From Bacilli bacterium (GTDB lineage Bacteria; Bacillota_I; Bacilli_A; RF39; UBA660), in NCBI GenBank assembly GCA_022009835.1, contig CP091726.1, forward strand, positions 17,205 to 81,204: 64,000 bases of DNA, written 5' to 3'. Position 1 is the first letter of the stretch, and every line of letters starts with the position of its first letter. Below the pieces are notes generated by a model. The model saw only the letters and a list, made by a program, of their open reading frames with translations, had not been told where the DNA came from and ran no database searches. Below, in pieces: positions 1,273 through 39,471 of the stretch. Both the position numbers and the translations under genes were made by a program.

Positions 1273-2362
1273 TTAATTCAAAAAAATTGATTTCAACACA
1301 TTATAAATTACATCTACTACTATTGAATTTCCAGCCTGGTGATATAAATAAGTTTCTGCACATACCTTTTTTTGCTCTATTATAATCTTCATCACTAAAC
1401 CCCATAAGTCTCCAAGCCTCTTTTGGATGTTAATTTCCTAATTCTCATTTTTTTAAACCTCCTCTACTAAAATTTTTACAATTATCAGATGTATTATTTG
1501 CTGTAAGTGTTGGTGCATATCCCTTTTGAGAAAAATACTCTCGAAGATTGAGCAAACTTACAACTTTTTATCTTTACCACAAACACCACCTGTATTATAC
1601 TTTTTTTAAATCAACTTCATACTCTCTATCAGGATTATTTTTATTAAATATAATTTTTATTATTAACTATTTTGTATTTACTTGTAGTTAAATAATATTT
1701 TTTTCATCTACTTCTCTTTCTAAATAATCTAATAATGTTTTTTTGCACATCCTGTACCTTCAATAAAAGCTAAACTCCTTATTCTTATCTAATATAGCAA
1801 CAAGAAAAATATCTTTTTTTCTTGTCTGTGGTACTCCATAATCAATAGCATTTAATACTCTATCATATAATGTATAGCCTAAGCTAATTAAATCTTGTTT
1901 AAACAAGTCTAGTGTATTTTTTTAAATGCTTTACTAGTAATATTAGCAACGTTTTCAAATATTACATATTTTTGGTTTCTCTTTTACTTCTTTTAGTAAT
2001 CTTATCATTTCCCAACCTAGACTTGATCTAGTAGAACTCTTAAAATCAAATCCTTTCATTTTACCAGCACAGCTGATATCCTGGCATGGAAATCCTCCGA
2101 TCCATATATCACAATAAGGTAAATTCTCTCCTTTTTATTTCTGTAATACTACCTAAATTTAATGATTCATCTATATTATGAATAGCACAAAATGATTTGA
2201 TTGCATTTTTTTGTCTATTTCGGAAAAATTCTAATGTATAATCCTTAATTATTTTTTTCATCCTTCAATTTTTTTGAAAAGCTTTTTTTCTGGTGCTCCA
2301 ATACCACTAAAAAAAGTACCAACTTTTTATGGTACTCTCACTATAATTTTTTTATTTGTCAT
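1273..2362 (-). CDS. DNA (cytosine-5)-methyltransferase, no adjacent endonuclease, frameshifted
   Basis: Motifs FSGIGAPE (I), GGFPCQDISCAG (IV), ENVANI (VI), YGVPQTRKK (VIII), RKLTPKEAWRLMGF and QAGNSIVVDV (X). AAGGAGG RBS before ATG at 2362. Confidence 0.8.
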
Positions 2363-2399
2363 TTATAATTCCTCCTTTTTCTATTTTTAACGACAAAAA

Positions 2400-2418
2400 G
2401 ATACAGATTGTCTGTATC
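2400..2418 (-). terminator. hairpin GATACAGA-n3-TCTGTATC followed by a T-run on the minus strand
   Basis: 8-bp perfect arms between the stop of the truncated ABC gene and the methyltransferase RBS. Confidence 0.5.
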
Positions 2419-2451
2419 AAATTCACTAATATTTATAAGGAAAATAAAGGC

Positions 2452-3015
2452 TTAAAAACTATAATTATTATTTTTTGATTTAAACAACGCTCCAGTTGGC
2501 TCGTCTGCGAGTACTAAGCATGGATCTGTTATTATTGCACGAGCTGCTGCTACTCTTTGTTTTTGTCCTCCGCTCATTTGGTAAGGATATTTTTTTAGTA
2601 CTGATTCGATGTCTAGTTCTTTTACTACTTTCTTTATTCTTTTATCTATTTCTTTGGGACTTACATTTTGAATTGATAAGGCTAGTGCTATATTTTCATA
2701 GGCTGTTAAGGTATCTAATAAATTGAAGTCTTGAAAGATGAAACCTAAGTCTTCTCTTCTAAACTTGTTTAAATCATTTTCTTTTAGTTTTGTTATGTCA
2801 GTTTCTCCTACAAAAATATGTCCGGCGGTTACTTTATCAATTGTGGATATGCAGTTTAGTAATGTTGTTTTACCTGAACCTGAAGAACCCATGATAGCGA
2901 CAAACTCTCCTTTTTCTACTTCAAATGATATGTTATCTATGGCTTTAGTTAAACTTGATTTACTTCCATAGTATTTTTTTCAATATTTTTCTATTTTTTT
3001 AGTATATTTTTCCAT
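2452..3015 (-). pseudogene. 3'-truncated BceA/MacB-type ABC transporter ATP-binding protein
   Basis: Walker A GSSGSGKTT, signature SGGQKQR, Walker [12 protein letters not shown]. It then diverges into [10 protein letters not shown]-stop where the D-loop and H-loop should follow. No permease gene follows. Confidence 0.75.
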
Positions 3016-3108
3016 ATTATTTTTCCTTCCTTTCGTAATTAATAATACTAGATAATAGGTTATTTGTCGTAATTTTTAATATTACAGTATATTACTTTTT
3101 TTGTAAGG

Positions 3109-4137
3109 TTAGTCTTCTGGGTGATAAAGTTTATTTTTACCAAAGATTATTTTGACAATGGTATATTCTTTTTCCTCAGATTCTATCTCTATTTTATGAC
3201 CTAGTTTGGTACATAATTTTTTGGCTATGTATAGACCCATGCCTGTTGATTTGTTTTATCTCTGCCATTAGTACCGGTAAATGATTTTTTGAAAACATTT
3301 GGGATATCACTTTTTGGTATGCCAATACCGTTATCTTTGATAAATAAGGTTATTTGATTATTATCTTCTATAGCATTTATTTGGATATAGGAGTTTGGAA
3401 TATCTTTTTTGTATTTGATACTGTTATTGATAATTTGATTTAAAATGAATTCTAACCATTTGGTATCGGTATAGACTTCGGTATTTTTTTATATCGACGA
3501 TTAGGTCAATTTTTATTTTTCTAAGAGGTCATCTTTATTTTTTTAAGGGCTACTGATGAGATTATTTTTTTCTAGTTTTTACTTTTTTTGAAGATAAAGT
3601 CTTCACTGGTATAGTTACTTCTTACATAATAGAGGATTTGGTCGATGTAGTTATCTAGTCTTTTTTTATTTCTTCAATGTATTCTTTTGGTACTTGGTTT
3701 TTATGATTATGGGTCATAAGTATTAGACTTGATATTGGTATTTTTACTTCATGTATCCACATCTCGATATATTCTTTGAAGTCTTTGGTGTTATTTATGT
3801 AACTACTGACATTTTCAATCATTGATTTGTTGATGTCGCACATGATGTTATATATTAGTTCTTCTTCGTAAGTATTTGGTTTTGGTATGGTTTCTAGGAC
3901 TAGGTATTTTTTATCTAGATTTTCGGTATTGGTTATGAGTGTGTTATAGAAGGTTCTTTTTTGGAAATATGATATTAAGATGGATATGATTAGTGTTAAT
4001 AGTAGTAATACTATGGTTACTATTATTAGTCCCTCTGGTACTTTGAAGGCAATGTCTAATAGGGCTATTAGAATTATTGATATGATAGTAATAATGATTA
4101 TGCTTATTTTATCTTTTAGATAGTTTGTTAATTTCAT
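3109..4137 (-). CDS. sensor histidine kinase (BceS-like: two N-terminal TM helices, short loop), frameshifted
   Basis: TM-rich N-terminus, H-box MWIHEVKIPISS, C-terminal HATPase_c residues ...GIGIPKSDIPNVFKK.FTGTNGR. 4-nt overlap with the upstream response regulator. Confidence 0.8.
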
Positions 4138-9755: not shown

Positions 9756-10023
9756 AACTTGTGCCCAAGTTGAACATAAGTTATAATTTGACTTACAAAA
9801 AATTATATTACATGTTAATTTGTCATTTTTTTAACCCTGTAGCAATATGCGACAAAGTTATAACTTCCGACCAACACGGTCGTATGTTAACCTTATCTCA
9901 ATTTGGGACAAAGTTATTTATCTTTAGACTTCGGACCAATTTGGGCCGAAGTAATAATTGTGATATATACGAGTTTTAATTTTATGTATTATTATGTGCA
10001 TAATGCACAGAATTTTTTTAAAT
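9756..10023. other. GC-richer non-coding block with palindromes and three ACA(A/T)AGTTAT repeats, adjacent to the recombinase 3' end (candidate recombination/att region)
   Basis: AACTTGtgccCAAGTT (9756-9771), CGACCaacacGGTCG (9868-9882), CTTCGG...CCGAAG (9929-9951), TGTGCATaATGCACA (about 9996-10010). Repeats at 9774, 9851, 9907. Confidence 0.4.
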
Positions 10024-11628
10024 CATGAATCTATAGAAAATTTCAATATTTTTTTATCTTTATCAATTTCAATTTTATCAATTAATGTTTGTAAAAAGTT
10101 CTCTAGTAGGTTTCTTTATATCAATTAATTCTCTTATTCTTTTTCTCATATTCTTCTAATTCTTTTTGGTTTTAATACCTTCATTTTTTTAGTATTTTTT
10201 TATATTTTTTTCTAAATCTAATTGTGTCTTATTTAATAGACTTTCTGTTTCCTGTGATAATCTTTTTATAAGTAACATCTGAAATATTACCTCTAAACTT
10301 ATCTTCATATAACATATCTATTTTTTTGAGATATATTCTTTTTATCTTATTTTTCTAAATATCTTATCTTTTTCCTTATTATCATCCTTACTACTATTTT
10401 TTTATCTGCTATTTCTTTTGATAATAACTTAGAATCAATCTGCTTAATATAGTTTTTACAAGTCGTTCTAACTACTTCAAGCAATGCTTCTTCTAATTTA
10501 TCATAAGGCATAAAATGTGGTTCACACAGTCTTCTTCTTGGATCTCTTGCATATTTATTACAATTAATAGTCCAATAATTATGATTTTTTCGGTAAGTAA
10601 TTGTTAATGCATTTCCACATTCTTTACAAAATAGTAAATTTTTCAAATAATCTTTTTTTCTCTATTACTAATACCTTTATTAGTTCCTTTTGACATTACC
10701 TTGGATTCTTTCAAAAGTTAATTTATCAACTAATGGTTCATGTGTTCCAGGAACTATGTCCCAATTGCTTTTTGGAAGAGATTTTTTCTTTTTAGATTTA
10801 TAATTTACTTTGGTCTGTGTACTTTGAACCATGTCACCTGTATACATTCTATTCTTTAATATCTTTTTTTAACTGATGATGTAGTCCACTCTTCATTGTA
10901 TCTCATTTTTAGAATTAGGATTTTTTTCGTTTTTAAACTACTAGGTGTTTTTAAATTTTATTATCATTTAAATATGAAGCTATATCAGATAATCCTACAC
11001 CATTAGCAGCCATTTCAAATATTTTTTTAACTACCGGTGCATATTCAGGATCAGGTATTAAATGACCTTTTTCATTTGGATCTTTCATATATCCGTAGCT
11101 TGGATTACTTCCAATAAACTTTCCTTTCTTTCTTTTATCATTTTAAAACACTTCTAATTTTTAATAGAATTTTTGCCTACTATAATAATCATTACAAGCA
11201 ATTATAAATGTCGATGAATCATTACTTGCTTGATTAATTGCACTATCGTAGTTTTCTTGTAATGATATAAATCTTATATTGTTTTTCCGGAAAAAAAGGT
11301 TTTCAATATAATATCCTTTCATAACATGGTCTCTACCTAATCTTGATAAATCTTTGACTATAACCAAATTAGCCATTTTGTTTTTAATGTCTTCAATCAT
11401 TTTAGTAAATCCAGGTCTTTCAAAATTAGTACCAGAATATCCGTCATCAACATATTCTCCAACAAATATAAAACCTTTTTCTTTTACAAAATTCATTAAT
11501 AAATTTCTTTGATTAGTAATACTTTTACTTTCTGATTCATATGATTTTCCTTCATCTGCTTCAGATAATCTTATATATATGACAGCTCTATAAATATTAT
11601 TTGGCATTTGTATCAATCCGTTATACAT
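10024..11628 (-). CDS. large serine recombinase, frameshifted
   Basis: Resolvase domain AVIYIRLSEADEG...SITNQR...VDDGYSGTNFERPGF...LVIVKDLSRLGRD. Recombinase domain. Zinc-ribbon LFCKECGNALTITYRKNHNYWTINCNKY...C. Coiled-coil tail. Confidence 0.85.
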
Positions 11629-11658
11629 TTACTACTCCTTTCTTTTGTTGTATAACAT

Positions 11659-11851
11659 TCAAAGCCATTTAAAGTATAATACTTTATTTTTCAAACTTTC
11701 GAATGTGCTAATTTTTTTAATTAGCACACTTTTTTTATATTTATTTAACAAATCCACCAAATTAAGAGCATTATCATCCTTTTTTTAAAAAGTTTCCGTA
11801 ATTTTTAAACATAAGCCACCTCATAAAAATTTTTATGAGTGTCTTTTTCAT
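11659..11851 (-). CDS. hypothetical small protein between the HTH gene and the recombinase
   Basis: MKKTLIKIFMRWLMFKNYGNFLKK... continues after one frame repair. Position fits an accessory/directionality factor, but no motif was seen. Confidence 0.2.
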
Positions 11852-11859
11852 TTTATTTC

Positions 11860-12383
11860 TTATTCCTCCTCGTATATATCACTTAATAATTTTTTTAATT
11901 CTTCTTGTTCTTCAATAGTTGCTTCGTTTTTTTAGGTATTAATTTACCATGCCAGTATTCATTACCTTCTTTATCTTTATAATAAATACTATCTTCTTTT
12001 TTTATTTAATTTATTATTATATTTTTTTAAAGTTTTTGTTTATAGCCTGTATTAAAATTATCTTTAATACTTTTTTTAATTTTTAAATTTAAGACCTCTG
12101 ATAATTTAATTATACGCTTAGAATTATTTGTGCTTTTATTATCATATTCAGTCCTAATATAACCAAAAGGTGGCTAAATTACTTATACTTTTTTTGATAT
12201 AGTTACTGCTGTTACATTATAAATATCACAAAAAAATATCTATTAGTAGCCCAACAATAACCATTTTTTTCTTACAAAGACTTATTATATGAATTAATAA
12301 TAATCTTTCTAAAAAAGTTAATCTATTATCTCTTAATACGGATTTTTAAAAATAAATACATTTATGAATTCTTCTTTATCCAT
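11860..12383 (-). CDS. helix-turn-helix DNA-binding protein (mobile-element type), frameshifted
   Basis: Reconstructed ...LRDNRLTFLERLLLIHIISLCKKNGYCWATNRYFCDIYNVTAVTISKK...IRTEYDNKSTNNSKRIIKL. Confidence 0.4.
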
Positions 12384-12416
12384 AATTATCAATATATAAG
12401 ATATATCTTGAGATAA

Positions 12417-12432
12417 TAAAAGTGCACTTTTA
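12417..12432. promoter_or_regulatory. 16-bp perfect palindrome TAAAAGTGCACTTTTA upstream of the HTH gene (candidate operator)
   Basis: Perfect dyad about 35 nt upstream of the ATG at 12383. A second 12-bp dyad AAGATATATCTT lies at 12398-12409. Confidence 0.3.
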
Positions 12433-12664
12433 AAACTTCTTTTCCCTAGGTAACTCAATCTTATAACAAATTAAATTAAAAAGAAATTGTATGAAACATG
12501 CAAAAGGAGTACATTTCTGTACGCCCATAGATATTTTTAATTTTCTATAATTTATCAACTTATCTTTGTTTTTTTATTTACAAATTCTGTTAATGTACCT
12601 TTTTTTATATGCATCAAATATTTTTTTCTTTCATATTTTTAATTGCTCAACTCTTTGAATTTTT

Positions 12665-13799
12665 TTACATGAAAGACAAAGTTCTTTTTTTATTCTTATC
12701 TATTACTTTCTTTATATGTTCTCTATTCTTTTTTGTTGATGGTGGTTCAACATATTCTATTGTATTAAACATACCATTTAAAGAAATGAAACATTTCCAC
12801 TTCTTAATGTATTCTAATTCATCCTTAGAATCTCCCATTGAAATAAATCTATTAAATAGCTTATTCATTTTTTTGAATGCATCTTTTTTTGATGCCCTTA
12901 CACAATATCTTTTAACTGTTAATCCTGTAATTAATGGCAATATTAATTGTTCATTTGGTCCTAATTCTTTTTTTCTATATCAATTATCTTAATTTTTTTC
13001 TCGCTTATAGAATGACCATAATCATTCAAAATATTACTAACCTCAGTAATTAAATCATTAGGGTTAAAATTATTGTCTTTATAAGAAAATGATATATCGT
13101 CAACATATGTACTAAATTTACAATTATATTTTATGGACACATCATTTATTTTTATCAAACATTTCCTTATATGATAAAAAAACTGACTATAGGACTGGTT
13201 GGATACCCCTGTGGAATAATTCTTTCACCAACATTTGAAGAACCGATAGGAACTGTAACAATTTTTGCCATTCTATCCGCTACATCACTTTCATAAACGA
13301 TTATATTACCATCTTTATCTTTTTTCTCTTTTGCCATATGCAATCCTGACTCTTTGGCAAAGAAATCCTTAACACGCTTAAATTTACAATTTGGAAAAAA
13401 ACTATTTATATCTAATAATATAAATTTGGTATTACCAATATGATATAAAAGCATTTCTTTTTATAATCACTTTCTTTCTTTGAAAATAAGTATTCTGGCA
13501 TTTCTATTTGAGATAAATAAAAAAACAAATTTGTCTTAATACTTTTTTTATGCTTATCACAACTATCACTAAACTCTCTATACTTACTTGATGTATAATC
13601 AGTTGGTTTTTTTATCAAATATTTCTTTAGTTACTTTAGATTGATAGAATGTTCTTTTTTTATTTAGAAAATGATGATCAGGGTTTCTTATTTCTTTTGT
13701 ATATACTTTCAAGTCTTTATTGGATAATAACTTAGCTAATTTTTCTCTTACTATAACATGCATATAAGTCATTTTTTTATACACTGTGTTTTTTTTCAT
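12665..13799 (-). CDS. stand-alone reverse transcriptase (retron/UG-like, about 380 aa), frameshifted
   Basis: Five ORF pieces join: ...YHIGNTKFILLDINSFFPN (motif 1), IIPQGYPTSPIVS (motif 4), STYVDDISFS (motif 5, YVDD), LPLITGLTV (motif 7, VTG-like). No fused effector domain. Confidence 0.8.
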
Positions 13800-13811
13800 A
13801 TTATCACCTCT

Positions 13812-13839
13812 AAAAAAGGAAAAAGCGCCAAATGCGCTT
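13812..13839 (-). terminator. hairpin AAGCGC-n5-GCGCTT plus T-rich tract just upstream of the RT RBS (terminator/attenuator)
   Basis: Minus strand reads GAAGCGCATTTGGCGCTTTTTCCTTTTTTAGAGGTGATAATATG. Confidence 0.45.
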
Positions 13840-13921
13840 CAACGGTTAATTAAAAGACAATACTTCGCTCGTTATGAGAATGCCACCTTATTATTAAAAT
13901 TTGATTTATTCGAATGAGATC

Positions 13922-14089
13922 TTATAAACAATGTACATAATAATTGCAATACTTTGGAAAAACTCCAAAATCGTAATGACCCATAATAAGTATAAATACT
14001 ATTATGGAATCAAATGGCTTTATCATTTTTAATCTTTTTTGGAAAGAAATAATAATCTCATTTACCTTTTTGCTCATTTTATATCTCAC
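13922..14089 (-). CDS. possible small ORF (about 55 aa) between the structured locus and the RT
   Basis: Strong AGGAGGTG RBS 6 nt before GTG. VRYKMSKKVNEIIISFQKRLKMIKPFDSIIVFILIMGHYDFGVFPKYCNYYVHCL with one hydrophobic stretch. Confidence 0.3.
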   Translation of the reverse strand: MRYKMSKKVNEIIISFQKRLKMIKPFDSIIVFILIMGHYDFGVFPKYCNYYVHCL

Positions 14090-14099
14090 TTTTTTCACC

Positions 14100-14365
14100 T
14101 CCTATTTAATTATTAAAAATAAATAAAAGGTGACACGACCGATGTTTTTAGTTAACCTCTTCGCATTTAGCTTTCCAGTGGTATGATGGAATAATGTTTG
14201 TAGGTGATGAGACAGCTTGACTGGCTCAGCACCACAAACATCCAGCATAGCATTTATTTGCTTGCAAATCTCCCAACGTCCCATAAATTTGAGCACACAG
14301 TATTATTTCAACTGCTATTGATAATTGTAATTATCCAGTTATTGCCTGCTTTCAAATTACAAGAT
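14100..14365 (-). ncRNA. candidate RT-associated structured non-coding RNA (msr/msd-like or DRT-type template)
   Basis: Visibly GC-richer than the flanks. Long imperfect hairpin GTTTGTGGTGCTGAG...CTCATCACCTACAAAC (14195-14238). 8-bp stem TTGTAATT...AATTACAA (14324-14361). TTGCAA/TATAAT-like boxes at 14391/14363. Same strand as the RT. Confidence 0.45.
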
Positions 14366-14394
14366 TATATTACATCATTTTTCTATAATTTTTG

Positions 14395-15475
14395 CAAGTC
14401 GGTTAATAAACTAGAAATTTTAACATCATATTATATTTTTTTATACATTATATTTTTTTATAAATTGCTCCATATATTCATAATCTGGTTGTAACTTTGA
14501 GTTTACTGGGATCAAAAATCTTCTGACGTTTCATTCGTGATTCATTAAACTTATAACCATATTTATATTTATTTTTTTGCATCAATATTATTGTTTTTAA
14601 AAAAATAACAATACATATTCATTATCAATATATTCTTTTTAAATGAAATCTTTTTTTACATCATCCGAAAATATACATTTATATTTATGATAAAAATTTT
14701 CAACAACGCTGCCATTATAATTAACACCTAAAACATTTCTATCCAGAGTATTATTAATATTAGATACATAATTGGTTATTCCATTATTAGAATCAGATGC
14801 ACCTATAAATGGAATAGTACCTACTACCATATTGCGCTTTTCCAGTCTTTTCCCTGGAAGAATATAAAAAATATTATCAATATTGTATTCCTTCCATTTT
14901 TTATTTTTTAGTTCGTCAATATTTTTGTAAGAAACGTTTTTTAATTTTAAAGTTATGTAATCACTCATTTCTTTTTTTGCTTTTTGCTATATATTTCTTT
15001 TATAAAGTTTTCCATATATTCATAGTCTGGTTCATCATTTTTTTGATGGCAATAGTACTTTTTTTCTCTAGCAAATCTTGTTGATGAAACAGCATAACCA
15101 AAAAGAATACTTCTTATTGACACTTTTTGTAATACAAGTACTTACAAAAATACCTATTTCCTTATTCATATTAAATTTAGGCACAAGTACAATTATATGA
15201 GTGCCACTAAAATTTGTACTTTGATAAAACGCTTGCCCAAAATCAGATACTGTAATACTATTACCTTTATGACAGACAACATCGTTACTATAAAAAACAA
15301 TACCATTATTATTATTTGTAGCTGAAACATAAGGATTAATTCCAACAAGTAAATCTTTTTGATTATTTCCTTTTCCCTTTTTTTCTATATAAAATAATTG
15401 CGATATTTCATATTCTTTCCATATAGGTTTATTTTTCCATTGTCATTCTCCTCAAACAAATATCCATTTCCATGT
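14395..15475 (-). CDS. HsdS-like specificity subunit with two target-recognition domains, frameshifted
   Basis: Two TRD starts WKEYEISQLFYIEKK... and WKEYNIDNIFYILPGKRL...PFIGASDSNNGIT...VNYNGSVVENFY. Repeated conserved spacer PDYEYME(N/Q)FIK. Confidence 0.7.
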
Positions 15476-17362
15476 GATATTGTGTTTATTTCAAAAGTCA
15501 AATAATCTGCTACACTTTTTTTCAAAATCATCTAAATTAGGTTGTTCATCATTAAAATAATAAAAAAACTATGCAGCCATTCATCATCAGGAAGAATTGT
15601 TGTTTTAACACAAAAATCCGTACTTTCTTCAATCTTATTATTCCATACATCTAATAAATGTTGTTTTCTGTCTTTAGCAATCGCTGTTTCTATTAAACCT
15701 ATATGTTGATAAATTTTTATATCCATCGTCCTCAAAATTAATAAATTTACACTCTTTATTTTTATCATGCGGTATACCTGCAGTAAATATTGCAATACAA
15801 GGCATAACACCAACACCATAAAATGTATCTTTATTTAAAGTAATAACTCCTTCCAAAGTATGATGTTTTTAATATATTTTTGCTTAAACGCTTGTTCATC
15901 TTTTTGTCTTACCGGTCATAGAACTTTGTGGTACAATAACCGCACATCTTCCTCCTATTATAAGAGAATCTAATAAGTGTTCAACAAAACTTAATTCATA
16001 TAAATCCGGATTGTTCTTCGACCCCTGCGAATACGGAGGGTTCATCATTCCAACAGTAGCAGCTTTTAGCTGTAATTTATTACTAGGCAATTTTAAAAAA
16101 TCATCATTAATTAAATTACTTTTTCCGTCTCCTCGAAGTATCATATTAGATGTTGCAATAGTGAACATATATGGTTGCAATTCAATACCATGTAACTGTT
16201 CTTGACGTATATGTCTTTTCTCGCTATCATCATTTGCTTGTTTTAACATATTATGCATAGCGGATATTAAAAATCCGGCTGTTCCGCAACATGGATCTAA
16301 AATTGTATCAAGTTTATTTATATTTAACAAATCACAAAATAATTCAGTTATATGTTTTGGGGTCAAAACTATCCCAAGTGTCTGACCATCACCACCGCTA
16401 TAACTCATAAACTCTCCATAAAATCTTCCAATATAATCTTCTGCAGAATTATTAAATCTAATATTTTTTTATAAAGGTGTTTATTCAAAAAAATTCAGTA
16501 TAATATTTTTAGTGGTGTTTTTCCCTAATTTTTTTGATTTATTTCATTTTAAAAATCTGTGAATCTTTAATAATTGAAAAATTGACTTAATAATTTGTCC
16601 TTTTTTTACATCCGGCTGAACATTTGCCCTCTTCAAATTTGAACTTATAGCATTATAAATTTTTTTGTCCGTCAGTATTATATGAATCACCAATTAAAGA
16701 ATCAACATCAAAATTCCTATATTCACTTTCTTTTAAAGCAAGTAATATTCCAGCCACTACTAGGGGCTTGTCAGTATCTTTTAAATTCCCATAGTTTCTC
16801 AAATCTTCATGTAAGATTGCAGCATCTTTTAATAATTCTGCCGTTTCTTTTTCCTTATCAGTGTCCTCTTTTAAAACTTCTCTTGTATAGTATTCATCTA
16901 TATTTTTCTTCATTGATTGATATAAAAAGATTCTAAATCTGATAGTTCTCTATAATCAGTAGTATTATCTACAAACAACGGTGAAATTCTATGATGCTTT
17001 TCATCACCGGATACACCAAAAGCAAAAATCTTTTTATATGATGTGTTTTTTGCTAAATGTTGTGCGTAAAATAATGCCCCATTGACTGCATAATCCATCA
17101 CGTCTTTTGTATCCAAACTGATTACATCATTATCAATTTTAATATGTTTATCTAAAGAAGATTTATCTTCTATAACAATTAAATAATCCTTAACGTTTCC
17201 AACATATTCAGGAAATCCAACTTTTCCAGTTCCCTTTTTAGACGCGGTTTTTAAAGCTTCATCTATCTCCTTAACATCACTACCTTGATAAGATAAACTT
17301 ATATTTGCATCCCTTAATAATTCATAAACCAAAATATCAGTTAAAGCCTCATTTTTCGCCAT
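15470..17362 (-). CDS. N6-adenine DNA methyltransferase with N-terminal PD-(D/E)xK-like nuclease domain (BcgI-A-like R-M subunit), frameshifted
   Basis: N-terminal GFPEYVGNVKDYLIVIEDK (HsdR_N-like). Methylase motif I DPCCGTAGFL and motif IV GMMNPPYSQG. About 610 aa after repair. No HsdR helicase gene nearby. Confidence 0.7.
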
Positions 17363-17363
17363 A

Positions 17364-17535
17364 CTACTTACTCTCCTTCTTCATTTTTTCTTCAATAGCT
17401 TCCACTACAAATTTATTTATACTATAACCCCTATTTTTATTTTTTCTTAAATGAACTAAATCACTGACTTTTTTTATATAGTTCTGGATTCATTCTTAAA
17501 GGTATTGGTACTTTATTTTCTTCCTTTTTTTTCAT
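17364..17535 (-). CDS. ribbon-helix-helix (CopG/Arc-like) small regulator upstream of the R-M genes
   Basis: MKKKEENKVPIPLRMNPELYKKVSDLVHLRKNKNRGYSINKFVVEAIEEKMKKESK after one frame repair. Its stop lies 2 nt before the methylase ATG. Confidence 0.55.
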
Positions 17536-17609
17536 ATTTATTCCCTCTTTATTATAATATCATTATATCTTGATATAATGATATCATTTTTAATAAAAAA
17601 ATTCAAGGG

Positions 17610-17687
17610 TTTGGGAGTAATCCCACAAAAGAATTTCGTACGGGAGTACAAATTCAGTGCTTGCAGGACAAAGAATTTACTCCCAAA
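17610..17687. repeat. 55-nt repeat copy 1 (core 17621-17675) enclosed by an 11-bp stem TTTGGGAGTAA/TTACTCCCAAA
   Basis: The core shares a perfect 17-mer AGTACAAATTCAGTGCT and 10-mer AATTTCGTAC with copy 2 at 19501-19555 (about 80% identity by hand). Confidence 0.65.
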
Positions 17688-17796
17688 ATAATTAATTACA
17701 CTTAAAAAAACTCTATCAATTTGATTCGATAGAGTTCGCTTTTTTTAATAAAATTTCTTTAATATCATTGGATTATCTTTTTACTATTTTTTTAAA

Positions 17797-18051
17797 TTAT
17801 ATTTTTATTCTTAATATATTCTTTACAGATGGTATAAGTTTATCTATATCACATCTTACATTAAATACATCTATTGCTGAATTAATATGATTATAAATTG
17901 GTGCTTTTAGATAATGCTTTCTTGTAAAAAAACTATCTGCTATATAAAAGGCTACTACATCTGGTATTATAAATTCTTTTAGATAGTTATCATAATTAAT
18001 GCATACTGGCAGGTATATTCTTTCAAATTCTTCATCAGTAATATCACACAT
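17797..18051 (-). CDS. hypothetical protein (84 aa, intact ORF)
   Basis: Intact ORF. Its start overlaps the TnpV stop (ATGTGTGA). No recognisable motif. Confidence 0.4.
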   Translation of the reverse strand: MCDITDEEFERIYLPVCINYDNYLKEFIIPDVVAFYIADSFFTRKHYLKAPIYNHINSAIDVFNVRCDIDKLIPSVKNILRIKI

Positions 18052-18396
18052 AGATACACTCCTTTAAAATTATTTCTTCTGCTATATCTTTTATATTATT
18101 CATTTTGCTTACCCATAACATTTGATTACTACTTTTTAATTCTTCAGTAATATTTTCTTTTTCAGCTAGTTCTGTAATTAACTTCTGCACCTTCTCCATA
18201 ACAGTAATATCGATATTATGGAGATATTCATTTAATTTATCATTAACAAGTAAATCAAAAATATAATCCTAATTTATATTTCTTAATATAATTTAATCTT
18301 AATAATCCATATTTTTCCTATACTAAATCTTTCTTTATCTTCTAATATTAAATCTGGTAATAAATAATCACCTTTCTTAGTGTAACTAATGTTCAT
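18044..18396 (-). CDS. TnpV-like protein (Tn4451-family accessory protein), frameshifted
   Basis: Reconstructed MNISYTKKGDYLLPDLILEDKERFSIGKYGLLRLNYIKKYKLGLYFDLLVNDKLNEYLHNIDITVMEKVQKLITELAEKENITEELKSSNQMLWVSKMNNIKDIAEEIILKECIYV. Confidence 0.65.
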
Positions 18397-18437
18397 AACA
18401 GTTCTCCATTTCTTTCTAATTTATTTGGCTTTAATTG

Positions 18438-18767
18438 TTATACATATTTTGTTACACAATGACTATCGCCACCACCTGAATTAATATGGTTCGATATTAG
18501 TATAACATCAGATGAGTTACCAAACTTATTTAAAATAGTATTTACTCTATCAGTTGGAGATAGTGTGGTATCTGAGTCTCTAGTTATAGCTACTGGTATT
18601 CCTAACTCTTTAAATCTATCATACATGTATTTGGATATTAATAGATTATAGTCTTTTTCTAGTAAATTATTGCCTGTAGCACCAGAATCTGTACCACCGT
18701 GACCTGGGTCAATTATTACTTTACGAACCGCTCTATATTCATTATTATTCATAGTTATTACCTTCAA
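18438..18767 (-). pseudogene. 3'-truncated N-acetylmuramoyl-L-alanine amidase (Amidase_3/CwlD-like)
   Basis: VIIDPGHGGTDSGATGNNLLEKDYNL...GIPVAITRDSD...LISNHINSGGGDS, then HCVTKYV-stop. The C-terminal half of the domain is missing. Confidence 0.7.
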
Positions 18768-36236: not shown

Positions 36237-36368
36237 GTATTAATTATACTTATTATATATAAGTATGAAATATATACTTAAAGTAGTTTATTATTGGTAT
36301 GTTATTTTTGAGTATAATAATAGTGCAATATACTTGACTTTTTATGATAGTTATAGTATCATTGTATT

Positions 36369-36483
36369 ACCGGAGAGAAATCTCGTCAGGTCGATAGCTC
36401 AATGTCGATTTTATTAAATTAAGTGTATGTTAAGTACACCGCTTGAGTTGGGGAGAGACTACTAGATAGTCTCTTTTCTTTTT
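36369..36483 (+). ncRNA. candidate about 115-nt small RNA with its own promoter and terminator
   Basis: TTGACT-17-TATCAT at 36334-36362. GAGA-GAAA-TCTC and GTGTA...TACAC hairpins. Terminator GAGAGACTA-ctaga-TAGTCTCT plus T-run at 36453-36483. No ORF. Confidence 0.25.
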
Positions 36484-37220
36484 ATGGGAATAATAGTTTA
36501 TGATCGATAATATCAATATCAGAATCAATATTTGATAATGCTCTTCTTCTAGTAGTGCCTGCGATTAAATCTGCTGCCTGCACTAAGTAACTCTTACCTG
36601 AATCTTGATATGTTAATCTTATTTCTAATTTTCCATATAATATATTTTTGTATATTATGTCATAATTAAAATTAGATATTCCATGTAGTAATTCTTCTGT
36701 TAGGCCATCTTTTAAATTATAATAACCATTACTTTTTGTAGATTGTTCATCTATATTTATTATTAATCTCACATTTTTATTTGGGTTTATTTTTTTATCT
36801 TTTATTAATTCTTCAATGGTACTTTTAATTAATCTTCTTATTGTGTAATCTATGTATCTTCCTTTTGAGGCTTTATTATTTATAATATGATTATATACTT
36901 TTTGTATTATTTATTACTAGGGCAATAGTATAATATTTACTTATATAGTTCATAATCCTTCTTTTTATGACCTTTCTTGATATTTGTATTTTTTTATTTC
37001 TTTACATTTTTTTAGTACATTCTCCTTTTTGTTTGGCCACAGTAAGAACATTTTTATTTCATTTATTATTTTACGATATTGAGTTATAAATTTATCTTTT
37101 TTTCTTGTTTTTGATAAAAAGACTATTCCTGCATATACTGATACCTTTTTCCTTTTTTGTTAATTTACCTGAATCATCTAAATTTATATATATTTCTTGA
37201 TATTCTTCTTTTTTATTCAT
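36482..37220 (-). CDS. DUF3800-family protein, frameshifted
   Basis: N-terminal EIYINLDDSGKL (DESG-like box). C-terminal ORF with YLVQAADLIAG (DUF3800 Q.AD..AG box). Confidence 0.55.
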
Positions 37221-37696: not shown

Positions 37697-39471
37697 ATGT
37701 TGGGGAAGATTATTGCTATTAATGATAATATTGTTTCTGTACAATTACAGGTTAATGTTTATGATTATGATGGTTTAATTGGTAAAAATGTTATTTTTAA
37801 AGATACTTCTTTTACTAATATAGGTGAAGTTATCGCTATCGGTAATGGTATTATGCAGGTATCTTTAGTTGGTGAAATTAAAGATGGTAAGTTTTTATAT
37901 GGTGATATTTCTAAGCCATCTTTCAGAGCAGAATGTCATACTATAGATAATGATACTTTTAGATATTATATTAAATAATGATGCCTCTAATAACATTAAA
38001 CTTGGTAAATCTTTTATTTATCCTAATTATGATATTAAACTTGATGTTGGTAATTTCTTTTTCTAATCATTTTGCTATTTTTAGGTAATTCTGGTAGTGG
38101 TAAATCTTATTCTGTAGCTAAAATTCTACAAGGTATCTTCTACCAATGTAAGAGTTTGCCTTTTTTTATTCTAATATCTTTTTTTATTTGATGCTTATGG
38201 TGAGTATCAAAGGGCTTTTTCGAGAATTCATGAGGTTAATGAAAATATTAATTATAAAGTTTATACTACAGATCTTAATAGTAGTGAGTTTGAAATTATT
38301 CAAATGCCTTTTTTTGGCTTCTTGGTCTTGATGATTTATGTTTACTTATGAATGTTACCTCTAAAGAACAGATTCCTTTTTATTGAAAAAGGCTCTTAAG
38401 TTAGTTAGTTATTTTTCTAGAAATGAGGATGAAATTATTAATCAGAAAAATGATATTATTGCAAGGTGTTTGCTAGATGTTTTGTTTTCTGGTAAATCTC
38501 CTAGTATGATTAGGAATAAGTTTATTTCTATTCTTACTAAATTTAGTACTAGAAATCTTAATTTAGATGTTAGTCTTGTTAAGGGTGGTTGGACAAGAAC
38601 TATTAGGCAATGTTTATTTGTAGAGGCTGGTGGTGAATTTTCTGATGTTGAGGTTGTTATTGAATATCTAGAAAGTTTATGTCTTGATAATTTTGAACTT
38701 TCAATGCCTAACGGTGAGTTTATGTATACTATGAAAGATTTTAGTGTTGCTCTTGACTTTGCTCTTATTTCAGAAGGTGCTCTTAATAGTGATTCAGCTT
38801 TTGAACTTTCTAATGTTTTAAAAGTTAGATTTAATAGTTTAATGAATAGTAATTATGCTAGATATTTTGAATATAATGGCTATATTAATAGAGAGGGTTA
38901 TATTAATTATTTACTTACTACTTCTAATGGTAGAAAAGCACAAATTATTAATTTTAATATTAATTATGTTGATGATAGATTTGCTAAAACTTTGGTTAAA
39001 ATTTATTCTAAACTTCTTTTTTTGATTATCTTGTTTCGTTAAATCAAAGAGGTTCTATTCCTTTTCATATTGTTTTTAGAGGAAGCTCATAGATATGTTC
39101 AAAATGATGATGATGCTATAATTCTTGGATATAATATTTTTGAGAGAATTACTAAAGAAGGTAGAAAGTATGGTTTGTTTTTAGGTATCGTTTCACAGAG
39201 ACCTTCAGAGCTTTCGGAAACTACAATATCGCAATGTAGTAACTTTCTCCTATTTAAGATGTTTCACCCTAGAGATTTACAGTTTGTTAGGGATATTATT
39301 TCTAGTGCAGATATTACACTGACAAATAAGATTAAGACTTTGCATCCTGGTAGTTGTATTATGTTTGGTACAGCATTTAAGATGCCTACAATTGCTATTT
39401 TAGATAAGCCTAATCCTGAACCTCTTAGTCAGACTTGTGATATTAATCAAACTTGGTATATTCATAATTAG
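37697..39471 (+). CDS. HerA-like (DUF87) ATPase with N-terminal HAS-barrel, frameshifted
   Basis: MLGKIIAINDNIVSVQLQ... (barrel). Walker A FGNSGSGKSYS after repair. LFDAYGEY. Walker B ...VFLEEAHRYV. SQRPSELSETTISQCSNFLLFKM. Confidence 0.8.

Follow-up and report, generated by a model that had tools for sequence, protein, structure and literature searches.

A probable type VI-like retron without a helix-turn-helix gene, combining a covarying hybrid RNA with an embedded small hydrophobic protein, in gut Bacillota

We analysed a stretch of 64,000 nucleotides (hereafter the window) from a Bacilli bacterium of the RF39 lineage (GenBank assembly GCA_022009835.1, contig CP091726.1, positions 17,205 to 81,204 of the forward strand), and describe here a locus on its minus strand that comprises, in order from 14397 to 12537, a promoter, a conserved structured RNA, a small open reading frame (ORF) and a gene for a retron-type reverse transcriptase (RT). 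The structured and relatively GC-rich leader extends over ~270 nt, and the conserved tail of ~60 nt closes with a hairpin and a T-tract at 13840-13812. The GC-rich block pointed out in the initial annotation of this DNA is present: its GC content is 37.5% at 14100-14299 and falls to 18-25% in the directly adjoining sequence, while ~2 kb away a methylase gene has 33-35%. The promoter boxes named there were also found (Table 1), and an extended -10 sequence, TGnTAnAAT, is kept at the promoter's alignment position in related loci. The promoter is absent from a consensus promoter scan because two inserted A residues, at 14389 and 14382, inflate the spacing of its boxes.

As written, the window sequence splits the RT over at least five frames, and the genes for the small protein (SP), for restriction-modification (R-M) and for a serine recombinase are broken likewise. 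As a reference for frame repair we used the closest intact relative, a short-read metagenome contig (L042, OLHG01000277.1; related loci are given L numbers here), which is 96.4% identical to the window across 6.8 kb. The two sequences differ by 99 indels. All but one of these (98) add bases to the window, and 84 fall within A/T-rich homopolymers of at least four bases; typical insertions add one or two bases, turning A4 into A5 or A5 into A7. Once the insertions are deleted, seven ORFs without internal stops emerge with 97-100% protein identity to those of L042. The RT, estimated initially at ~380 aa ending at 12665, thereby becomes an intact protein of 411 aa that ends at 12537 and agrees with its L042 counterpart at 409 of 411 residues, so that the frame repair proposed at the time can be considered done. 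The corrected SP ORF matches in 73 of 74 codons, counting from an upstream in-frame GTG at 14098. The breaks in the RT, SP, R-M and recombinase genes could also be explained if the window copy were a decayed pseudogene cluster without function in its organism. Since the insertions strike all genes alike and their removal reopens seven frames, we read the locus as biologically intact and treat the breaks as apparent sequence-quality artefacts, namely systematic over-calling of homopolymers. Intact copies are abundant besides, the 90%-identity cluster of the closest RT homologue, the intact P0001, having 345 members, and decay seems to us very improbable. Within 10000-18500, and probably in the whole window, homopolymer insertions break every gene, and a reading based on ORFs under-calls the genes.

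The corrected RT can be assigned to the retrons by profile, motif and structure comparisons. The best PADLOC model for the hand-stitched window protein is RT_VI (5.4e-36); P0001, which is 88% identical to it, matches the same model at 2.2e-45 and 153 bits, the next family scoring 80 bits. The top 25 PADLOC matches are all retron RT models, with no DRT, UG or Abi model and, for P0001, no RT_IV among them. NCBIfam retron models match the RT, yet below their cut-offs, and Pfam reports RVT_1 only. Published signatures of retron RTs are NAxxH in region X, between RT2 and RT3, and VTG in region Y, within RT7 (Mestre et al. 2020, PMC7736814). Across 25 aligned homologues with 40-88% identity, N113, A114 and H117 of the NAxxH motif (NALYH), the catalytic Y228, V229, D230 and D231, and T287 and G288 of the RT7 triplet ITG (I286, T287, G288) are invariant. 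A frameshift splits the first motif in the window and correction restores it, while ITGLTV and YVDD are readable directly in the uncorrected sequence; all four motifs listed initially (LLDINSFFPN, QGYPTSP, YVDD and ITGLTV) lie on the minus strand. All 14 matches of a sequence profile search of the PDB are retron RTs (Kva2, Ec67, Eco8, Ec78, Ec86 and Ec83), and an AlphaFold2 model of the protein (pLDDT 80) retrieves retron RTs at Foldseek ranks 1-18.

An RT of another class, either a DRT/UG or Abi enzyme with a template RNA or a group II intron maturase, was considered as an alternative: structured upstream RNAs also accompany DRT2, DRT3 and DRT9, and DRT2, group II intron, Abi and UG15 RTs appear in the Foldseek list at lower ranks. 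The profile matches, the leading fold matches and the invariance of the retron-specific NAxxH and VTG motifs all argue against such an origin, and no group II intron or other RNA family of Rfam matches the locus, nor does an Rfam intron family match elsewhere in the window. The suggestion of a retron or DRT-type template RNA thus stands in its first half, given a structured RNA lying upstream in the same orientation as the RT and the invariant NAxxH and (V/I)TG motifs, and falls in its second; the grouping with intron maturases that had been named as a refutation was not observed. Within the reach of these tools, we regard another RT class as the least probable of the alternatives considered in this work, and the DRT, intron and pseudogene readings as essentially excluded. 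A motif scan of the window yielded no second RT, a YLDD at position 178 being located in a HAD-like fragment.

The RT family is small. Among 1.84 billion representative sequences, only about ten 50%-identity clusters match it at E<1e-50, and its next relatives are RTs of ~300-340 aa, of which 10 out of 10 tested score best on RT_VI (141-277 bits). The window RT is ~90-100 aa longer than canonical type VI RTs (about 300-320 aa), partly through a C-terminal extension of ~65 aa that is family-specific, conserved, helical and confidently modelled. An A-x3-G pattern in this extension looked like a fused helix-turn-helix (HTH) domain; this candidate was dropped as unsupported. The hhalign probability against type VI HTH proteins is 0.1%, a Pfam search with the extension yields nothing, and a separate AlphaFold2 model of it (pLDDT 80) has no Foldseek match in the PDB. 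As placed by hidden Markov model (HMM) only, the family appears to be a small branch with long RTs that lies at the margin of type VI (clade 3 of Mestre et al.) or close to it.

The small ORF upstream of the RT has a GTG start led by AGGAGG, in line with the strong RBS noted initially; its extent was revised from ~55 codons ending at 13922 to 71 codons ending at 13872. Its product has a Lys-rich N-terminus, two hydrophobic segments and a C-terminal (S)NFN motif. In 25 of 25 related genome loci, down to 37% RT identity, an ORF of 58-74 codons ends 50-77 nt before the RT start, and the order of structured non-coding RNA (ncRNA), small hydrophobic ORF and RT is repeated in further metagenome loci (those from which a small ORF was extracted). 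The related proteins share a Lys- or Arg-rich N-terminus and the (S)NFN C-terminus, and the maximal mean Kyte-Doolittle hydropathy over 19 residues is 1.5-3.0. Differences among relatives are most frequent at the third codon position, followed by the first and the second, and 42% of the codons with a single difference are synonymous. On this substitution pattern SP appears to be a conserved protein-coding gene, and its composition makes a membrane peptide and toxin likely. By position, size, hydrophobicity and coding signal it corresponds to what is expected of the small accessory protein of type VI retrons. The description of the RT as standing alone without an effector consequently no longer holds, as a gene with a coding pattern and two hydrophobic segments occupies the same place in every relative examined. 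Another ORF, of 61-64 codons over the GC-rich block (14102-14296), was considered as a gene and rejected: L012 has a break in it, L013, L023, L024 and L068 have their longest open stretch in another frame, and most other lineages retain only ~30 codons. Because neither frame nor length is conserved, we read this ORF as an accident of base composition.

The RNA was studied in an alignment that begins at the -10 box, ends at the ribosome-binding site (RBS) of the RT and includes the window and 25 loci with less than 97% mutual identity, several lineages sharing 40-50%. RNAalifold predicts 54 base pairs, 34 of them with compensatory changes. For a stricter count we considered the five helices that are cleanly aligned by MAFFT, namely P4, P5, the two parts B1 and B2 of a long-range helix B, and a loop-to-tail pairing (Table 1). 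In these helices 95.7% of the alignment cells are paired, and for 27 of the 45 pairs both partners have changed. None of 500 shuffles reaches any of five covariation measures, and controls in which the strands were slid by 1-3 columns give 33-49% paired cells and 4-9 pairs with two-sided changes. Conservation together with covariation across 25 diverged loci is decisive, in our judgement, for a predicted RNA structure above chance.

Helix B is the best-supported element. It is a long-range helix of 21 bp that encloses the entire SP ORF, with 99.6% pairing and compensatory changes in 7 of 10 pairs for B1, and 97.9% and 6 of 11 for B2, so that 13 of its 21 pairs are compensatory. The locus had been described as purely non-coding, running from promoter to terminator; this was superseded, as the covarying helix joins RNA on both sides of SP and the presumed terminator overlaps one of its strands. 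The pseudoknot-type pairing between the P1b loop and the tail is 96.2% paired and occurs as GGCAAUA/UAUUGUC, GAUAAUA/UAUUAUC, GGUAAUA/UAUUACC and GGCAAUA/UAUUGCC. Between the strands of helix B, the Shine-Dalgarno (SD) sequence of SP is paired in the minimum-free-energy fold of 14 of 14 lineages, and the flanks of this RBS-locking hairpin covary (UCACCU/AGGUGA, CCAUUCC/GGAAUGG and CAUCCCUC/GAGGGAUG).

The 5' domain contains several local hairpins. The 8-bp stem and the imperfect long hairpin of the initial annotation were recovered as P1 and P4/P5. P4 (14242-14232 with 14204-14193) reaches 95.5% pairing, with compensatory changes in 7 of its 11 pairs, and P5 has 5 of 6; by analogy with Retron-Vpa2, this stem-loop may be the msd, that is the template of the complementary DNA (cDNA). 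P1, P1b and P2 recur in independent single-sequence folds of the lineages tested, with differing sequences; for P2 these include CGG-UGAAAGU-CCG, CAAC-GAAA-GUUG and GCAAA-GAAA-UUUGC. In 16 distinct sequences the three stems are 97.8% paired and 10 of 14 pairs are compensatory (slid controls, 33-47%), for an alignment that was fitted to a covariance model and does not contain the window's own sub-lineage. Two covariance models of this region (R1 and R2) recovered 17 loci, missed group A, L013 and L014, and found L051 only at E=2.1; P1-P2 in the window sub-lineage are therefore taken from single-sequence folds. P3 has a compensatory variant, ATTCGC/GCGAAT, in L002 and L047 and longer variants elsewhere, and its pairing was not quantified because the MAFFT register is poor there. 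The outermost helix proposed by RNAalifold (columns 33-38 with 609-614) was rejected: its 5' columns (33-38) already belong to the local P1b hairpin as that hairpin's 5' arm, the helix is incompatible with helix B and the loop-to-tail pairing, and its variation is mainly from A-U to G-U.

The hairpin and T-tract noted initially before the RT RBS are indeed found there, and they form the sole terminator-like site in 12300-14800 (shuffled sequence averages 0.3). The hairpin and B1 should be mutually exclusive, because both use the B1 3' strand. A canonical terminator is seen in the window's sub-lineage only; elsewhere the alignment reads as a weaker stem with G-U pairs. B1 is universal.

Table 1. 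Coordinates of the elements of the retron locus in the window; RNA elements are predicted
Feature	Position	Strand	Description
Promoter	14364..14397	-	TTGCAA 14397-14392; overlapping -10-like hexamers TAATAT/TATAAT 14372-14364
Hybrid RNA (predicted, ~545 nt)	13812..14357	-	5' structured domain, embedded SP cistron, 3' tail; both ends inferred
P1 stem and P1b	14325..14363	-	P1 CTTGTAATT 14363-14355 pairs with AATTACAA 14332-14325; encloses the small P1b hairpin
P1b loop GGCAATA	14346-14340	-	5' partner of the loop-to-tail pairing
P2 hairpin	14297..14315	-	GCAGT-TGAAATAATA-CTGT; fold and covariance-model alignment
P3 hairpin	14256..14270	-	GATTTGC-AA-GCAAAT
P4/P5 long stem-loop	14193..14242	-	Outer ATGTTTGTGG/CCTACAAACAT; inner hairpin loop nCAAG; predicted msd (cDNA template)
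Helix B, 5' strand	14146..14171	-	B1 GCTAAATGCG 14171-14162; B2 GGTTAACTAAAA 14157-14146; partner 13854-13827
RBS-locking hairpin	14095..14133	-	Anti-SD TCACCTTTTATTT 14133-14121 pairs with AAATAGGAGGTGA 14107-14095
SP gene	13872..14089	-	71 aa from GTG 14089, AGGAGG-led; insertions at 13962 and 13916 break the window copy
TATTGTC	13856..13862	-	3' partner of the P1b loop, pseudoknot-type, just past the SP stop
Helix B, 3' strand	13827..13854	-	B2 TTTAATTAACC 13854-13844; B1 CGCATTTGGC 13836-13827
Terminator-like hairpin and T-tract	13812..13840	-	GAAGCGC-ATTTG-GCGCTTT; overlaps the B1 3' strand
RT RBS and retron-type RT gene	12537..13811	-	RBS AGAGGTGA; ATG 13799, stop ends at 12537; 411 aa corrected

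The arrangement of these elements closely follows what has recently been described for type VI retrons, in which the msr-msd and a translationally repressed SP toxin share one hybrid RNA whose 3' end pairs back (10.1101/2025.10.22.683967). The multicopy single-stranded DNA of Retron-Vpa2 has been mapped to the long stem-loop, and it relieves the repression of SP (Zhang et al., bioRxiv 10.1101/2025.10.22.683967). The window locus agrees with Retron-Vpa2 in having a structured RNA and a putative toxin cistron on one predicted hybrid RNA, an SP RBS buried in a stem, a long stem-loop like an msd, and a 3' end that folds back to pair with the 5' domain; in both, SP is small and hydrophobic, and the RT encoded downstream scores best on RT_VI. 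It differs by the missing HTH gene, an RT of 411 aa rather than about 300-320 aa, a Gram-positive gut host, and an SP with two hydrophobic segments and no detectable sequence relation; the conserved 7-nt direct repeat proposed to act in Vpa2 derepression was not found. Retron-Sen3/cl2075 (bioRxiv 10.64898/2026.04.27.721009) likewise has a conserved stem-loop near the 5' end and a second, long one in the interior; its SP RBS is sequestered, and SP is flanked by an inverted repeat, with IR1 just 3' of the long stem and IR2 past the SP stop. The IR1-IR2 pairing of cl2075 is without significant covariation, in contrast to the equivalent helix B of the window family.

A canonical SP-HTH-RT locus from Clostridia (L026), with an RT 32% identical to that of the window, folds to the same order as the window locus: GC hairpin, IR1, anti-SD/SD, SP, IR2, and a hairpin with U-tract. 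Retrons of types IV, V and VI are monophyletic according to published phylogeny, and type IV (Retron-Eco6/Ec48) also combines a retron RT with a membrane-spanning effector, which has two transmembrane segments. The effector of type IV is a separate, larger protein that is not encoded within the ncRNA. In the window family, by contrast, the membrane peptide is embedded in the RNA, and RT_IV is outside the top 25 HMM matches.

Several observations weigh against a type VI assignment. In about 50 related loci, no HTH gene separates SP from the RT; the canonical type VI loci from the same scans do carry this type-defining partner. In type VI a Cro/C1-type HTH protein (cluster 2_1, 91-110 aa) is encoded upstream of the RT or overlapping it, in ~78% of catalogued entries, the remaining ~22% being without one, and in both systems studied, Retron-Vpa2 and Retron-Sen3, the HTH protein is needed for viability or control. 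An HTH_36 protein is encoded in the window at 12427-11952; it belongs to the transposon backbone, occurring only in the transposon sub-lineage and missing from the other lineages. Further, the RT_VI score of 153 bits compares with 226-277 bits in typical members, SP matches nothing in Pfam or PADLOC and has no sequence relative that could be detected, the single-sequence folding energy (z = -1.58) is not significant by itself, and Rfam has no family in the locus (13700-14600) even at E<=10. No conserved repeat of at least 6 nt resembling the Vpa2 direct repeat was found between msd and riboregulator, and a canonical a1/a2 duplex with a branching G could not be assigned from the sequence. We can only speculate that, if the arrangement is permuted and B1 takes the part of the a1/a2 priming duplex, the branching residue would be G13826, which directly follows the B1 3' strand (alignment A2, column 609) and is present in 25 of 26 sequences.

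Taken with these points, we consider it probable, at roughly 0.8, that the locus is a type VI-like retron whose effector is SP and whose RNA is a hybrid RNA; this reading is preferred because both the RNA logic of the preprints and the layout of the canonical L026 locus match. It represents an HTH-less, long-RT variant of the type VI kind in gut Bacillota, in which SP has two hydrophobic segments. Its atypical character had first been attributed to the small ORF and the missing effector; SP fits a type VI effector, and the truly atypical features are the absent Cro/C1-type HTH gene and the longer RT. Most of the type VI lineages published so far come from Proteobacteria or Bacteroidetes, with one additional heterogeneous "Large" group, which may already contain the window family.

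From the RT family, the gene order, the covarying RNA architecture, the sequestered SD and the coding, hydrophobic SP that we observe, the locus is best explained as a two-gene, presumably anti-phage, retron defence module of the type VI kind. Its operation, from cDNA synthesis and choice of template to trigger, derepression, toxicity and defence, can be modelled after Retron-Vpa2 as follows. A constitutive promoter would produce a hybrid RNA of ~550 nt, the 5' half of which would fold into msr-like P1/P1b, P2 and P3 and msd-like P4/P5, and the 3' half of which would be the mRNA of the 71-aa membrane peptide. This mRNA would be transcribed and stay silent, because the RBS is locked in a hairpin and the cistron is enclosed by helix B and the loop-to-tail pairing. 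The 411-aa RT, expressed by read-through of a leaky hairpin, would bind the hybrid RNA and copy the P4/P5 hairpin into single-stranded DNA (ssDNA) at a low basal rate, the cDNA being removed by host nucleases. Phage infection could then cause cDNA to build up, for example by inhibiting an AddAB/RecBCD-type nuclease or by supplying ssDNA-binding recombinases, upon which the RNA would be remodelled, the RBS freed and SP translated. Damage to the membrane by SP would finally stop the growth of the infected cell (abortive infection). We give this Vpa2-like route of derepression about even odds.

A different mode of control is known for Retron-Sen3, which acts post-translationally: both ssDNA and SP are constitutive, and SP is held in check by the HTH protein, which neutralises it and binds the RT (Garcia-Rodriguez et al., 10.64898/2026.04.27.721009). 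Retron-Sen3 depends on this HTH antitoxin, and the window family has none. A corresponding scheme for the window would require SP to be produced constitutively and neutralised at the protein level by the RT itself, through its C-terminal extension of ~65 aa or internal insertions, until interference with AddAB/RecBCD frees SP while the level of cDNA stays unchanged. The length of the RT and its conserved helical extension without known homologue are in line with this scheme; against it, the extension resembles neither type VI HTH proteins nor any Pfam family or solved fold, and the conservation, with covariation, of both the SD hairpin and the enclosing helix B favours translational silencing. 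We regard Sen3-like control as unlikely, and with HTH absent the Vpa2-like translational route appears more plausible than a protein antitoxin. Since the HTH partner is missing, control would have to be exerted by the RNA and perhaps by the extra segments of the RT. It is conceivable, although we hold this as a tentative and rather doubtful proposal, that the locus is a minimal RNA-controlled retron in which one RNA serves as template, toxin mRNA and antitoxin. The fold alone would then silence SP, the choice of the 3' strand between helix and terminator would couple the state of the RNA to RT expression, the C-terminal domain of the RT would replace the restraint by HTH, and reverse transcription would be the single switch to a translated mRNA.

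Genomic context places the module among mobile and defence genes. An amidase, a TnpV(-like) protein, the M and S subunits of a type I R-M system, the retron, the HTH_36 protein and a large serine recombinase form a unit common to L001, L042 and the window. In the window the parts flanking the retron lie at 10017-12427 and 14403-18767 on the minus strand, the retron being cargo of this transposon-like unit, and the serine recombinase has 524 aa. In another lineage the module follows GmrSD and methyltransferases and precedes a TIR protein. From the R-M, GmrSD, TIR and serine recombinase neighbours we conclude that the module is cargo of mobile defence islands in gut Bacillota. The related contigs are labelled Bacilli, Erysipelotrichaceae, "Tenericutes", Clostridia and Breznakia. 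None of the viral contigs encodes a relative of the RT, and phage and plasmid collections contain only relatives with at most 35% identity.

Small hydrophobic toxins with a sequestered SD and locking long-range pairing are the hallmarks of hok-type mRNAs. The window RNA resembles hok/sok mRNAs in that a putative membrane toxin would be kept inert by SD sequestration and long-range pairing of the 5' and 3' ends. It differs in that an antisense RNA is not evident and that the activator is presumably reverse transcription by a dedicated RT instead of 3' processing and decay of the antisense RNA. The locus might accordingly be an addiction system similar to type I toxin-antitoxin modules, which would maintain the serine-recombinase transposon by post-segregational killing and in which the RT would serve maintenance. 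Such a role would suit the hok-like features, the position of the module at the end of serine-recombinase elements in several lineages and the occurrence of an RT relative beside a MazF toxin on a mobilizable Enterococcus plasmid. An antisense RNA gene would be expected and is not evident, an intact RT with invariant YVDD is strictly co-conserved with the RNA, the neighbours are typically defence genes, and the characterised relatives defend against phages. Addiction thus seems quite improbable to us as the function of the locus, and the type VI-like retron is retained.

Small hydrophobic ORFs upstream of an RT_VI-like RT or overlapping it, again without HTH, were observed in more distant loci (L118; L028, L029 and L032 from Bacillaceae; L030 and L033 from Campylobacterota). 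They differ from the window family in RTs of 302-338 aa with 25-35% identity and in small ORFs of 58-112 aa that are unrelated in sequence. L118 is the mobilizable E. faecalis plasmid pKUB3007-4 (NZ_AP018547.1), on which, at 2200-3427, the gene of a hydrophobic "hypothetical protein" of 93 aa extends into the start of one for a "reverse transcriptase family protein" of 321 aa that is 35% identical to the window RT over residues 30-258. About 500 nt upstream are intergenic, no HTH gene is present, and MazF toxin and relaxase genes adjoin; this is probably another unannotated HTH-less type VI-like retron. In the three Bacillaceae loci the small ORFs have 91-112 aa. In the two Campylobacterota metagenome-assembled genomes and in the metagenome contigs L074-L077, the latter with near-identical small ORFs, they have ~38-83 aa. 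The ORFs of all these pairs overlap the RT start. The proteins of these HTH-less relatives are annotated as hypothetical, and their occurrence suggests that HTH-less architectures are common outside Proteobacteria.

Elsewhere in the window, an Rfam DUF3800-I RNA was found on the plus strand at 36362-36486 (65.6 bits, gathering score 44.2). It adjoins an ORF fragment that resembles DUF3800 and lies on the minus strand (36482-36772, ..LVQAADLIAG..), meeting this fragment at its 3' end, with no RT motif found nearby, and the two might be part of another defence locus. Near this fragment, two adjoining ORF pieces of 219 and 133 aa on the plus strand (38383-39471, ..GIVSQRPSEL..) resemble, by eye, a HerA/FtsK-type ATPase that a frameshift has divided.

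The explanation of type VI retrons dates only from 2025-26, and the two systems studied disagree on how the toxin is controlled, both being HTH-dependent. The lineage described here, which has lost the HTH gene or never had it, retains the hybrid-RNA architecture under strong structural selection, and thus offers a simpler system in which to ask whether RNA structure and reverse transcription alone gate toxin translation. It extends type VI-like retrons to gut Bacillota, among them Erysipelotrichaceae-like bacteria, uncultured Clostridia and Breznakia, in which serine-recombinase transposons carry the module and annotation goes no further than "hypothetical" or "RT domain protein". The covarying helices provide a map for mutagenesis and a possible seed for a covariance model of an RNA that has no match in Rfam. 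The finding is not a new principle; it is a clean natural minimal system, the RNA covariation of which is unusually well resolved.

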